This document shows, one piece after another, positions 7,688 through 60,140 of a stretch of 64,000 nucleotides of DNA. A model generated the notes under the pieces. It was given only the letters and a program-made list of their open reading frames with translations, had not been told where the DNA came from and did not search any database. Origin of the DNA: Eledone cirrhosa (taxonomy: Eukaryota); NCBI GenBank assembly GCA_964016885.1, contig OZ024746.1, positions 29,636,001 through 29,700,000 on the forward strand, written 5' to 3'. The translations under genes were made by a program, and so were the position numbers. Each line of letters opens with the position of its first letter. Positions within the stretch are counted from its first letter, which is position 1.

Positions 7688-8016
7688 AAATGAAGTAATT
7701 CCGTCGGAAAAGTCCAGGAAAAAAGAGTGCTCTATGTAGGTAACAGAGCTTAATAGTTATGTAATAAACAACATAAGGCAATTATTCCATTTACCAGTGG
7801 TTTCTTAAAAGCAAAAAATGTTGCTTTCAATCATCAGAATGAAAAAGTCCTGGTGTATTTATTGATATTGGATTCTAAAAACAAAAATGCATGTTTTTAG
7901 AATCCAATATCAATAAATACACCAGGATTTTTTCATTCTGATGTTTGAAAGCAACATTTTTTGCTTTTAAGAAACCACTGGTAAATGGAATAATTGCCTT
8001 ATGTTGTTTATTACAT
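7688..8016. repeat. Family L asymmetric inverted-repeat element in (TA)n
   Basis: ~7759-7881 is the reverse complement of ~7892-8016; the left arm has ~70 extra nt. Confidence 0.85.
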
Positions 8017-8892
8017 ACATATATATATATATATATATATATATATATATATATATATATATATATATATTCATGCATATATATATGTGTATGTGTATAG
8101 TAATATATATGCCCACGCAAGAATAACTAGCGCGTGATAACACACAATGAAGATTGAAAAAAAGCTAGAAAGCCTGGTTAACAGATATGTTGATGAAAAC
8201 AAGGGAAAATGAAATGAAAGTAAACAGGGGGGTAGTTTATAAGATCTAGTTAATATTTGTGATTGCCGCTCACTATTTACACTTTATCAAGGGGTCAGCA
8301 GAGTTAGATGTTGAGCGGATCTACGTCGCTTTTCATGATGTCTTCCAGTTTTTCGATCAAACAGCCTGGTCATTGTATTAAACTCCAAATGACTGCGCAT
8401 TCTACAGACACGTTTACACTTCAGGTAATTCTCGGGAAGATTCAGTGTGAAACATATTGTGCCGGACATGACCTTATAAATTATAGCCACTGTTCACCCG
8501 ACTGGCTTACAAAACCAATTTCTGTCGATGCCACTTCACTCAAAAGGCATTGATGGGCACGAGGCTATGGTATATGACACTTGCTCCACATGGATTGAAA
8601 CTAAGACCTAATCATTGCGAAGCGAACTTCTTAACTATTCCCCTATGCTGCGCCTACGTTGCAGTGATGACACAGAATATATAACAATAGTCAATATTTA
8701 TAATTGTCACTCGAGATTAATCATCAGTGAGTCACTTATATGGTATTTCGTTAAATAACACCAGACCAGGTAATATCTGTGTTGTCTCTTCAATATTCTC
8801 ACGGTTGTTACTTCAAACTGAAGTGAAATAGTGTATGTCATGTAAATAGAAAAAGGTATAGATTAGTGGTTAAGCAGATAGCATTGAAAATC

Positions 8893-9993
8893 AGAAGATC
8901 GGCTATGTCGAACGAGAGTAAGGCGCTGGTAGGTTGATCTGGTTGAAAGCGGAGGACATGTCCGTACCGTTGCATGTGGCGGATAGCTATTAGGCGAGAA
9001 GCTGTGGGCTGATGTTTGCGCGTACCCAACTTTTGTTGGAAACGTGGTGATACCATGTGGTGTTCTTGATGGTCCTCAGAGCTCTGCTATCGAAGCTGTC
9101 ATTTGCCAGGGTCATTGTGAGGAGCCACGTTTTTGCTCCATAGAGGAGAACGGAAAGGGCCGATGCGTTGTAAAAACAGAGCTTCGTTTTCTGGGAGATT
9201 AAGAAGTGGCGCTAAAGGGGATTTTATAGGGAGTGCATGACCCTGCCAGCTAAGCCACATCTGCGGTTGATCTCCGGAGTTAGATCAACATTGTTGGTGA
9301 CAGTCGAGCTCAGGTAAAATAGGGAGCTGACAAACTCCATGGCGTCGAAGTCAATATGAAACGGAGGAGGATCCCGGCCGTTGGTGTTATGCATCAGCGC
9401 TGTCTTCGTCCAGCTTACCTGATGGCCAAGCTTTACTGATTCCTCCCCGTATATGGTCAGTGTGTCTCTGAGCTGATTGATCGAGTTGCTGAATAAGGTG
9501 GTATTGTCTGCGTACTCTATGTAGGTTAGGTGATAAGTAACGCCTGGAACTCACTCACAGACCTTGGTCATCAGATAGTCGATGGTACAGTTGAAGAAGT
9601 CGGGGGTAGTCACCCCGCCCTGTCTGACCCCGCTGTCGATGGGGAACCAGTCAGAGTCCTTCCCGTTCACTCGCACGCACCTACCTCTCGGCACTGCTAT
9701 AGAGCTGTTGGAACAGTGTGGTGATCTTGGGAGTCACACCGACAAGCTGGTGAATTTTCCAGAGGAATGCGTGGTTGACCGTGTCGAAAGCCGCGTTGAG
9801 GTCGACGAAGGCGACATAGAGACAGAGATCTCTACGCAACTCCCGAGATCTTTCAATAATGAGGGTGAGTGCAGAAACGTAGACGGCGGTGGTTCGATTA
9901 GGCACGAATCCGGCTTGTTGTGGGCGACCTCTGCTTCTAATAGCAGAAAGAGCACGGTTGAGGAGGATATTAGTGAAGACCTTGCTTATGCTA
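8893..9993 (-). mobile_element. Degenerate RTE-type LINE reverse transcriptase fragment
   Basis: SKVFTNILLNR...RPQQAGFVPNRTT...LYVAFVDLNAAFDTVNH.LWK...LFQQLY, with downstream degraded RT and MQRYGHVLR-like motif. Confidence 0.85.
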
Positions 9994-10330
9994 TACGCAC
10001 ATGTATATATATATGTGTGTGTGTGTGTGTGTGTGTGTGTGTATTTATATATATATATGTGTGTGTGTGTGTGTTCATATAAATATATATATATTTTTAT
10101 ATGTGTGTGTGCATGTGTGCATGTAAATATGCATACATGCCATACATAGGCAGTCATACGTACAGCTTAGAGTGTAACTTCCGTGCAGTCACTCATATTC
10201 ATATTTTATTAAAGATATCAAGTACTATGTAACAACTAATATATATGGTGTCTGATGGGAACTTATACACACACACACACACACACACACACACACACAC
10301 ATATATATATATATATATATATATATATAT

Positions 10331-57110: not shown

Positions 57111-59029
57111 AGCCAGCGTATGAATTTTCCAGCTTAACCTCGTACATGGAAATGATTGGCTACTGTGATCACACCTGTCTGCGGATGTTACCCATCCATC
57201 GACCGACTTCCGCTATCGAACAGTCACAGGCGAAAAGACAGTGTGTGAGAATATGACTCTACAATCTTCTCCTCGTTGGATAATGGATTTCTAACTGTTT
57301 CACCATTATAAGTACCTATTTGCATTGAAACAGCGTCTTCAAAACATTCTTAACTTTAATTATAATTTTATTTTGTTGCCGAGTACGATTTATTCTAAAT
57401 ATATCTATTAGGTAGCGATTCTTGTGTTTGCTCAAAGCTTTTTATGTCAGTTCAAGTTGTTGAATGAATTTGAAAATTGCATTAGAAACCTTGACAAAGA
57501 CACACACCAGTCAGTTTACCTTGGACGGTATCTTTAGCTGCCTTATCAAGACAAACGTTTGTAGGTGTGTAAAAATCAAAATGACCCCTAACTTTTAAAC
57601 ACATTTAAAACCAAACATTGAATGTATATATGTTAATACTGACACTGTGAGGAGTAGCAAATATCTTTTTGTGTGAGCTACATGTACCCGAACTAAAATG
57701 AAACGTGTTACGTATGAAAAGAGAAATATTATAGGGAATAAAACAATATATAGAAAATACTAGAAACAAGACTGAAGGTGATGTTTTAGCATCTCTCACA
57801 GAAGACAAGAGTTTAACATTATTTTTCTTCTTTCTCTTCTTTTACACCAAATTAAATTAAATTGAAAATTCTGGAAGGTTTACACTATTATCTGCAATCG
57901 ATATTTTCATAATGACATAACATTAATTTCGTTTTGAGGACCACAATTCTTTTAGGAAACCATTTCTCTGAGGATATTAGACGGAGGTGATTTAAGTTTC
58001 TATGTGGTTGACACATCACGACAGAGTTGGCATTTTTCTAAGGGAAGCCACATGAATTACATCAATGGATTCAATAGCTTCACAAGAAGGCGGCGCTGAT
58101 AATAACTAGAGTAGAAATGGCGGCGGAGGAAAAATGCTGAGTATGTTCCAGGTAATTTAATTTGTCGAAAGAAACGATGTTTCAGCGAATAAACTAAACG
58201 AATAGAAGAAAAAATAAACGGTTTTGCATGCGAATAAAGAAGACAAAAATGAAAGCAGAAGACGTAAAGTAATAATTCAAACAATAAGGAAATTGAATTT
58301 AATGTAATGCCACTTATATTGCTTTAGAAATATTCAGATTTAGACTGTATAGCTGACTAGTTTAGACCATGCGTTTCTATGTATTTATATTTCTGTGCGC
58401 ATGTATGTATATATGCATGTGTATTTAAGTACATGCATGCATGCATATATATATATATATATATATATATATAACCAGGTTTGATGGTCTTTATTCTCTC
58501 GTTCACGATTTCACCGAGTTTATATTCATAGAAATCTAGGACTTGTCTCTTTCTTCTCACTTTCTGTTGCTTAAACCATTTTGTTTGTTCACCCTAGCGT
58601 CCCCTTTATTTACGTGTCCCAACGACTTTTTTTAGCCGTTGTTCGCACCAACCTGAGGTATATGGCCTTTAAAGCGATGAAATGCCTAGGACGGTTGGAA
58701 GGCCACTGATGAAGGACTTACTTTTTCATATATATATATATATATATATATATATATATATATATATATATAATAATGTAAAAAATCTCCTAATTTTTGT
58801 GGGGAGGGACTTTGTTGGAATCACTGTTTCAGTAGTAGCATTGAGTCCTAGTATTGGTGTCAACTACGATGATTAATACACATTACCAAATAATCTACCT
58901 ACACACACATAATATATATATATATATATAAATATATATATATATATACATATATACATATGTATATATATATATGTATATATATATATGTATATATATA
59001 TATGCATATATATATATATGTATATATAT

Positions 59030-59533
59030 ATAAGTTGTAATAAAATGAAAACGAAATTTCATTTCTCACTCTTAGTACGGCACTTACTTAAATGTAAGTA
59101 TGTATGTATACGTACATACATATACGTATACAGACGTACAGTAGCATGCACATATATACATATATATATATATATATATACATATATATACACATATACA
59201 TACAGGTACACATACATATATGTACGTATCAGTTTAGCGGACGCTTATTATAACGCCCGCTTTGTTCGTTTGTAAACAAACTGAACAGCCTGAATTTATG
59301 CCGTACGGTGTTAAGGCAACCACGTCACCTTTTTGTTCAACACTGACACAGGAACGATGTACTAGTTTCAAGCTTGTTAGCTATCATCAGCACCGTATAC
59401 CCTTCTGCCAGATGGTTGAACGTTCGAAAGTATATACTTTCCTTATGAAAATTAACGGCTGAGCAGCCTAATTTGCATATCGAGTGAGTTCTGTCGGTCA
59501 GGCGTACCGAAAACGATAAGTTGTAATAAAATG
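59030..59533 (-). mobile_element. Family J retrozyme-like monomer, second circular permutation (486-nt period)
   Basis: ataagttgtaataaaatg at 59030-59047 and 59516-59533; homologous to 12296-12785 with a shifted start. Confidence 0.78.
59354..59396 (-). ncRNA. Type I hammerhead ribozyme (family J)
   Basis: ACGGUG-CUGAUGA-U AGCU AACA AGCU U-GAAA-CUAG-UA-CAUCGU. Confidence 0.88.
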
Positions 59534-59769
59534 GTGGAGGTCAAATGTACTGAACAATAGCAGGCAAAAACACTACAGGGAGCCTCACCCCAGAAAGAAT
59601 TCTATAGACTTCTGACTGAGGAATGCTCTCAGAACTGAACAATGTGAAGTTTGACACTTTTTTTTGTTATTTTGTTCCTTTAACACCTTGTCCCTTCTAC
59701 CATTTTATCAATTTTTAAGCTAACTCCAACAATAACAACACTTAGAATGAGGAATGTTCTAATAACTGA

Positions 59770-60140
59770 CCAATGAGAGGAGAAGGGGACCTGTGACACA
59801 AAAATTCGTTTGTTTGAATTCATATGACTCCAGTTCCCCAGTGAATTAACAACCCAACAAGGAACTGGGTATATCAGAGTATTGACAATATCATACACCT
59901 AAATAACATATATACTTGTCTATACCATACTAATTCAAACTGCCTGAAGAGATCACAGCCAAAGATGGCTGTCACCGAAATATATATAGCAGTAATAAAC
60001 GAAGCTAAATTTTAATCATTTGACTTTTATTTAACTTTATTTTACACTACTCCGGAGTAACCAAACCAACCTGCGCACTTCGTCGAGTGCTCCAGCCTGC
60101 ATACTGAGGTGTTGGTATACAACCAACATAAACTCAAAAT
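59770..60140 (+). mobile_element. Penelope-like 3' fragment (degraded EN end plus pLTR)
   Basis: Degraded (W)IH..T.VPQ(G)IN at ~59815-59850 upstream of a hammerhead, AATAAA and tail. Confidence 0.6.
59939..59993 (+). ncRNA. Type I hammerhead ribozyme
   Basis: ACUGC-CUGAAGA-GAUC ACAGCC AAAGAU GGCUGU CACC-GAAA-UAUAUA-UA-GCAGU. Confidence 0.82.

Follow-up and report, generated by a model that had tools for sequence, protein, structure and literature searches.

The analysed window, a stretch of 64,000 nucleotides in the 3.0-Gb genome assembly of Eledone cirrhosa (GCA_964016885.1, contig OZ024746.1, positions 29,636,001 to 29,700,000), consists of simple repeats over 46% of its length. Short inserts lie between its (TA)n runs, and many of them have an inverted 5' arm together with a 3' extension that stays unpaired. 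Penelope-like elements (PLEs) have been described as inserting in this form, with a pseudo-long terminal repeat (pLTR), an adjacent inverted and 5'-truncated copy, and a one-sided tail (Craig et al., 2021, PMC8557442). The inverted arm stops at what is here called the short end, the other copy continues to the long end, and the tail is the stretch between the two. Eleven sites in the 3' tails of these inserts contain a bulged RNA stem composed of RCUC, an inner stem, a variable loop, a two-base bulge (UN), and GAGY. Those tails that can be traced belong to PLEs of the Hydra clade, which encode a reverse transcriptase (RT) joined to a GIY-YIG endonuclease. Comparative evidence suggests, with a probability of about 0.65, that the motif is the site bound by this RT-endonuclease for an internal start of reverse transcription 3-10 nt upstream of each copy.

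A sequence-only reading of the window had listed eleven sites of an RCUC..GAGY hairpin, and all of them (11/11) lie where it had placed them, nine as exact RCTC..GAGY. The one-mismatch versions that it named in families M and F are also present: M has GAAC, and F, in its window copy, is missing the five bases TGCTC that are present in other F copies. Its description of the hairpin was correct in that the loops are unrelated, but the stem is not confined to 4 bp and extends beyond a two-base bulge. Side by side, the window sites have an inner stem of two to six pairs after RCUC, and the first bulge base is invariably U; over all copies, the inner stem spans 1-6 bp, the loop 3 to ~60 nt, and the bulge two bases starting with U. 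The plain 4-bp pattern matches 27 times in 34,300 unmasked bases, compared to a shuffle mean of 13.4 (maximum 22 in 60 shuffles). At about twice chance it is weak evidence alone, and it was rejected as the feature for this reason. The bulged form, in contrast, occurs 15 times (12 distinct places) in the window versus 0.78 expected by shuffling (maximum 3). Five additional window copies had not been listed before (Table 1). Because the bulged descriptor was drawn from the window sites themselves, it was tested elsewhere, on tail clusters and on loci from other sources. The short arm had been said to end about 3-10 nt ahead of the hairpin, which holds for D (8 nt), C (6 nt), L (7 nt), F (10 nt), and M (~10 nt, by eye), whereas the distance in E is 11 nt. 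In K the arm end is ambiguous because that stretch is itself an AT repeat; no inverted arm suitable for this measurement exists in the window for B or for the sites at 28771, 50208, and 60049. For the last of these, which belongs to family Hy-A, the inverted arms of other copies stop at window position 60044.

Three of the eleven window tails (Hy-A, D, and B) were traced to open reading frames (ORFs) of Hydra-clade PLEs, and a fourth (F) to a noncoding head-to-tail unit of ~545-560 bp that keeps both of the stems described below. The families are thus not "otherwise unrelated", as the sequence-only reading had it, since the traceable tails share one clade and therefore descent. The D tail lies ~850 nt downstream of a Hydra-type endonuclease ORF in loci L273, L275, and L281-L284, and a B subfamily ~1.6 kb downstream of a third Hydra-type endonuclease in L300, L303, L305, L308, L314, and L316. 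The carriers have the architecture of EN+ (endonuclease-bearing) PLEs, including the pLTR, the adjacent inverted 5'-truncated copy, and the one-sided tail. Hy-A, Hy-B, and Hy-C each encode RT and GIY-YIG domains in a single ORF (frames of 785-930 aa) with a YRDD core and a C-terminal endonuclease. Marks of the Hydra RT are DKT (for DKG) in Hy-A and RWK/RWR in all three families. By eye, the endonucleases of Hy-A, Hy-C, Hy-E, and the D-linked family show the CxCx5C linker, CxxC, and CxH around conserved E and N residues, and no CCHH. With P0003, a protein that matches Hydra-2_Amil by eye, the endonucleases share 35-47% identity; pairwise BLAST comparisons with P0003 gave E values from 1e-21 to 1e-40, versus 0.06 for the Neptune-type locus L001. 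Hy-A, with an ORF of ~2.7 kb and a 3' region of ~1.4 kb, is longer than the "generally under 3 kb" of the clade, which is a described tendency rather than a criterion. Insertion into (TA)n is reflected in long ends that run into the microsatellite in 59/60 copies of D, 21/22 of B, and 20/20 of C, and the lone exception in D is an outside chance match. Hy-A, B, L, and 60 of the 86 outside loci possess a hammerhead core; none was seen in full-length D, and both strands of F are devoid of a CUGAnGA core. In L275 (1580-2520), the complete 3' region of D has no CUGAnGA core but retains GAAAC and the stem.

All ten Hydra-type families with a visible tail carry the motif (Hy-A, Hy-B, Hy-C, Hy-D, Hy-E, Hy-G, D, B, the family of the decayed endonuclease at 7097, and the L016 family). 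Among them, the 7097 family is counted through its relative L033, and the L016 family has a one-base bulge. No tail is visible at the Hydra-type loci L145, L031, L051, and L164. A Pfam scan of 99 of the 224 window frames detected no PLE protein, a homolog search with the endonuclease region against proteins of 451-1437 aa scored nothing, and viral contigs yielded no relative. In Rfam, the window gave 572 sub-threshold hits, of which the best 150 included no relevant match, and five stem-bearing loci gave only one weak hammerhead and two unrelated matches.

For the test within this genome, tails were chosen by arm geometry alone from a nonrandom sample of 1.6 Mb that comprised the window, its neighbours, and loci around PLE proteins and tails. 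The resulting 196 tails in 67 clusters were scored by a box rule that uses sequence only, i.e., NCTC at most 20 nt from the short end followed by the first TNGAGY, and a cluster was counted if at least half of its copies fitted. Twenty-two of the 67 clusters contain the box, 13 of these outside the families of the sequence-only reading, while the hit rate at random positions is 2.2%. The box starts 4-11 nt past the short end in 65 of 66 copies. After collapsing to 21 families, inner positions 1-3 are paired in 59 of 63 cases, whereas 20,000 swaps of the 3' arms gave 38.0 on average and 53 at most. Only the register with a 2-nt bulge pairs at all of positions 1-4, unlike those with a bulge of 0, 1, 3, or 4 bases. 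Nine families have A-U as the first outer pair, eight have G-C, and one has G-U; in three it is unpaired. One further family, outside the box rule, has GUUC..GAAC. The covariation that had been postulated for the hairpin is thus found in its inner stem, in the tail clusters and likewise in the outside loci. G-U pairs exceed A-C pairs 8:1 in the tail clusters and 5:2 in the outside loci, which points to the sense strand as the likely folding form. A third class of ends directly after the hammerhead GAAA (clusters 0, 2, and 25) was set aside, as it stems from an internal AT run.

The outside loci were obtained by a profile search for Hydra-type endonucleases, in which a tight alignment of 16 led to 80 metagenome and six genome-collection loci. 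Scoring was possible in 54 of these 86 loci (hammerhead core plus the 110 nt after it), and 26 of the 54 contain the box (shuffle mean 1.4, maximum 5 in 300). Inner pairs are formed in 53 of 60 cases in 15 collapsed sequences, versus a swap mean of 39.9 and a maximum of 51. In 21 loci the strict motif follows the hammerhead core at a distance of 41-82 nt; it occurs in two more without a recognised core and once lies far off. A further 17 loci break off 2-10 nt before the stem site of a sister locus or published consensus (by eye). In the published Hydra consensus sequences (supplement File S7; six inspected by eye), exact copies are found in Hydra-2_Amil from a coral and in Hydra-1_Ajap and Hydra-2_Ajap from a sea cucumber, and Hydra-1_Ajap contains both motif copies. 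A text search of the published consensus file with four 8-mers returned 21 matches, four of them in Hydra ends, although line breaks in the file hide some occurrences from such a search. The one Naiad match that fits the descriptor ~480 nt from the end was taken as chance. Loci L251-L256 are animal Hydra-type retroelement sequence although their contigs are deposited as bacterial genome bins; contamination from a host is the most likely reason.

In tandem and full-length units, the tail runs on into the 5' leader of the next ORF, and a second copy of the motif follows past the long end. Two copies are present in 11 of 13 junctions (Hy-A, Hy-B, Hy-C, Hy-G and its sister L282, L175, L192, L196, L202, L207, and L241), the exceptions being L218 with one copy and L198 with none within the stretch read. 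The second copies have inner stems of 1-4 bp that start with C-G in all cases (11/11), and they lie 36-69 nt ahead of the aligned ORF start; both copies sit between the hammerhead core and the start codon. Since stem 2 is missing from an inserted copy, it was invisible to the sequence-only reading. Ends were mapped against natural junction copies, and the distances refer to the last exact match, so that TA overlap shortens the values. Microsatellite-ended copies of Hy-A terminate 4-8 nt ahead of stem 1 (18 copies) or 3-10 nt ahead of stem 2 (41 copies), and only 2 of 67 microsatellite-ended BLAST alignments end elsewhere. Ends of Hy-C fall 3 nt ahead of stem 1 (seven copies) and 3-9 nt ahead of stem 2 (six copies), and those of Hy-B 6 nt ahead of stem 2 (three copies). 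Hy-G, which was identified only after the second-stem prediction had been written down, ends 8 nt ahead of stem 1 in six copies and, by eye, 6-15 nt ahead of stem 2 in eight of nine long-end copies. A clustering of 3' ends relative to the hairpin, as the sequence-only reading had anticipated, is therefore apparent, with ends gathering 3-10 nt upstream of the stem. Between stem 1 and the long end the gap is anything from 32 to ~125 nt, whereas the long end keeps a constant distance to stem 2, which argues that the long end follows the downstream stem. Tails in this genome measure 65-175 nt. A second stem was also looked for in D, B, C, Hy-D, and Hy-E, for which no read-through copies were found. 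Two ends of Hy-E lie in the window at 61661-61814, a short end on the plus and a long-end piece on the minus strand, split by an AT run in the stem loop.

Several observations weigh against this interpretation. An earlier, looser picking rule gave 48 of 76 pairs, a value reached by 46 of 20,000 swaps, and the rule was tightened after mis-picks in the looser version had been seen. CUC/GAG is almost invariant, which leaves the first outer pair and the inner stem as the sole positions able to covary; pairs were counted by family with kinship uncorrected, and several coral-type loci are close kin. Among the 45 clusters without the box are spurious tail calls, carriers that are decayed or variant, and genuine tails lacking the motif. 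Because Neptune-type families with two-ended tails also belong to these clusters, the motif is not required for tails in general. The box finder also matched 8 of the 54 reverse strands of the outside loci. One family in this genome (L097, L144, and L161) has variant bulges, as does the copepod consensus Hydra-1_Crog; by eye, the copy in Hydra-1_Amil is weak and Hydra-1_Obim has none. Most F copies contain a C.A mismatch in stem 2 yet end there all the same, and the query that retrieved the Hy-A long ends in L041-L070 itself terminates at the long end. In fold predictions, the first inner pair has a probability below 0.1 in 5 of the 11 window sites, and both Hy-C stems have pairing probabilities below 0.05. 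The outer stem is supported in most junctions and the bulged register often not; covariation, in counts uncorrected for phylogeny, is what suggests this register. Finally, seven window families (C, E, K, L, M, 28771, and 50208) have no tie to an ORF, where the search covered C only, once, and reached the neighbouring Hydra family Hy-G instead of a linked ORF, and the motif is the sole pointer to a Hydra assignment of these seven.

In the mechanism that we propose, the RT-endonuclease of the element would cut the (TA)n target, and the resulting DNA end would prime complementary DNA (cDNA) synthesis on the short AU-rich segment that precedes a stem, aided by a TA match of a few bases. Initiation at stem 1 would produce the short, usually inverted arm and initiation at stem 2 the long one, and the sequence between the two starts would remain as the one-sided tail. 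Docking at each stem could thus account for both arms and the tail, as two stems would set two starts. Noncoding units such as F may keep the stems in order to be moved in trans.

The same map of 3' ends would result if the stem instead directed the element protein or a host nuclease to cut the element RNA 3-10 nt upstream, and the RT then started at ordinary RNA 3' ends. Cut RNAs could also explain why the full-length Hy-B copy L156 starts at the short-end position beside (AT)n, and why three or four of ~30 F read-through copies start within a few bases of that position. However, the other 5' starts of read-through copies are scattered, and an apparent cluster of F starts at query positions 428-429 coincides with a deletion in the query copy. 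Moreover, the related Poseidon protein initiated on uncut RNA and needed no hammerhead cleavage (Frangieh et al., 2024, PMC11167929). The hammerhead is not the cutter, since its core ends 41-82 nt from the stem, and for the same reason its helix was ruled out as a source of the motif or of the ends. Cutting of the RNA is an unlikely explanation.

Quite improbable, in our view, is an action at the DNA level, where the GIY-YIG endonuclease would read the motif in cDNA or in the double-stranded element and resolve an intermediate a few bases upstream. Craig et al. (PMC8557442) ascribed the tail to endonuclease-mediated resolution, the Drosophila Penelope endonuclease required the tail for cutting (as cited in PMC11167929), and the outer CTC/GAG is an inverted repeat that a dimer could read. 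Half-sites spaced anywhere between ~6 and 70 nt apart, with an inner stem that is paired, are unlike a double-stranded site, though, and the excess of G-U over A-C pairs is on the sense strand, whereas first-strand cDNA is antisense. There is a similarly small chance that the stems have another role, such as protein loading, translation control, or transcript handling, and that ends lie ahead of them only via AU-rich flanks matching the (TA)n primer. TA or AT bases beside every mapped end and the location of both stems within the 5' leader of the next unit would fit such a role. Yet the untranslated regions are AU-rich throughout, with internal (TA) runs, and the ends nevertheless fall mostly within a span of less than 10 nt ahead of each stem; the noncoding F unit retains both stems as well.

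Small RNA structures that are bound by an RT and fix where copying starts or stops are known from the 3' stem-loops of long and short interspersed elements (LINEs and SINEs), the 3' untranslated element of R2, the template boundary of telomerase, and epsilon of hepadnaviruses. The LINE and R2 elements are 5' of the start and copied. Compared by role, the Hydra stems differ, as they are 3' of their start and would be left out of that cDNA. A closer parallel is Poseidon of Anolis carolinensis, whose purified protein cut AT-rich DNA on both strands and started cDNA at two internal sites bounding the tail (PMC11167929). Poseidon requires RNA 3' of its start sites (up to +172, with starts near +111-118), and the protein is a predicted dimer. 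Two internal starts bounding a tail, an AT-rich target, and the need for 3' RNA would thus be shared. The clades differ, however, and the Poseidon starts are inside the ORF, in an AC-rich stem-loop, whereas here the sites are in the 5' leader with one stem each; the portion of that study drawn on here defines no conserved repeated recognition motif. The Hydra clade was described as C-terminal EN+ PLEs, generally under 3 kb, with tails of 30-40 bp (Craig et al., 2021). The elements analysed here share the RWK, DKT, CxCx5C, CxxC, and CxH marks, the (TA)n targets, the pLTR with an inverted arm and one-sided tail, and in some families the hammerhead core, but are ~4 kb or longer and have the longer tails given above. 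That description, as far as drawn on here, includes a hammerhead and no tail stem. F resembles non-LTR retrozymes, which are non-autonomous PLE derivatives (PMC7229834; bioRxiv 10.64898/2026.07.22.740005), in being a noncoding head-to-tail unit that has a cis motif in common with autonomous elements. It differs in its size of ~550 bp and in the missing CUGAnGA core, the feature in common being the stem pair. Neither the motif nor its doubling is described in the open-access literature searched, which excludes subscription papers, figures, and preprint supplements. While the insertion architecture and internal initiation are already known, this motif and the way it accompanies both ends are apparently new. 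In our judgement the cis element is real, clade-wide, and apparently undescribed, in a known kind of retroelement.

Table 1. Stems and associated features of Hydra-type and candidate Hydra-type elements in the window (copies missing from the sequence-only reading are marked "additional").
Feature	Position	Strand	Remarks
First bulged stem of Hy-A (autonomous Hydra-clade element)	60049..60088	+	ACUC, 6-bp inner stem, 18-nt loop, UC bulge, GAGU
Hy-A hammerhead core (CUGAAGA..GAAA)	59944..59980	+	ends 68 nt ahead of stem
Hy-A 3' untranslated end	59540..60139	+	long end 60139 against (TC)n(TA)n; in full-length units second stem 3-10 nt on
Family D stem	10449..10472	+	element 10332-10520
Family D, additional copy	32991..33014	-
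Family D, additional copy	53352..53375	+
Family B stem	11908..11927	-	2 inner pairs here, 3 in other copies
Family B hammerhead core	11991..12031	-	ends 63 nt ahead of stem
Family B, additional copy	31718..31737	-	stem match
Family B, additional copy	49741..49760	-	stem match
Family C stem	20329..20347	+
Family C, additional copy	50412..50430	-	2 inner pairs
Stem 28771	28771..28790	-	3 inner pairs, UU bulge; sole copy in DNA examined
Stem 50208	50208..50233	-	3 inner pairs, UG bulge; relatives have hammerhead core upstream
Family L stem	7729..7749	-	GCUC type, UA bulge
Family K stem	19517..19539	-	5 inner pairs, UG bulge
Family E stem	52777..52800	-	4 inner pairs, UU bulge
Family M stem	48994..49019	+	GAAC in window copy, GAGC in sister copy L091
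First stem of family F	54019..54043	+	damaged in window copy by 5-nt deletion
Degenerate second stem of F, at unit start	53577..53594	+	7-15 nt past long end of preceding unit; GCCC here, GCUC in L077, L088, L151
Decayed Hydra-type endonuclease of another family	7097..7441	-	window copy stops at short end near 6300; long-end relative L033 has stem 7 nt further on

Naiad and Neptune were considered as carriers and rejected, as the matches to the GIY-YIG profile (40 of 150 retrieved) are mostly Neptune-type and without the motif. The latter families, which we label Neptune by their protein motifs, include autonomous members that are also two-ended, with shorter tails (38-70 nt) and no motif; none of four Neptune-type 5' regions of this genome carries the stem pair, and the tails are without the box. 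Neptune-type tails (L002:1700-1790 and the leaders of L007 and L013) start with ACTCGTGT 9-12 nt past the short end, and the complementary CACACGA lies just past the long end, which would give a different stem spanning that end. In the window, the 3' end of the Neptune-type L020 family (60187-60377 and 60568-61580, minus strand) abuts the element at 60049, and 21553-21752 is a short end of the L013 family.

Other repeats include a unit at 51969-52680, also present in L003 and likely another PLE-related tandem unit, in which a direct repeat of 242 bp accompanies a CTGAAGA core, and a family at 12339-12690 and 59222-59520 that forms head-to-tail arrays of ~510 bp (L011 and L131) and has a tail without the motif. 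A LINE-type RT with a zf-RVT domain and one frameshift is encoded at 2990-5673, and a second, decayed RT at 9227-10166 on the minus strand. The array of a 12-bp repeat at 39096-45885 (~567 copies) can be read as a threonine-rich open frame of 2,307 codons on the minus strand. Outside the window, L270:2900-3430 (also L023 and L032) contains a tandem unit of ~270 bp that ends in GCUA-UUUC-AGAGC-ACC, a stretch resembling the histone mRNA stem-loop.

The start-site signal of PLEs and their one-sided tail are the questions on which the motif bears, as the in vitro study placed the starts and not the signal. We see about an even chance that Hydra-clade elements, from coral to echinoderm and in this genome, use one small ancient RNA motif as two docking sites, each of which sets an internal start. 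Such a pair would explain the two-ended tail and the inverted short arm, and a portable stem of 20 nt could make a telomerase-related RT-endonuclease copy whatever RNA precedes the stem into (TA)n DNA. The doubled, compact motif with its fixed spacing to both ends offers exact mutations for testing this model. It would also be a structural target in the closest mobile relatives of telomerase, and may serve as a simple tag for Hydra-clade elements and their dependent noncoding elements in animal genomes.

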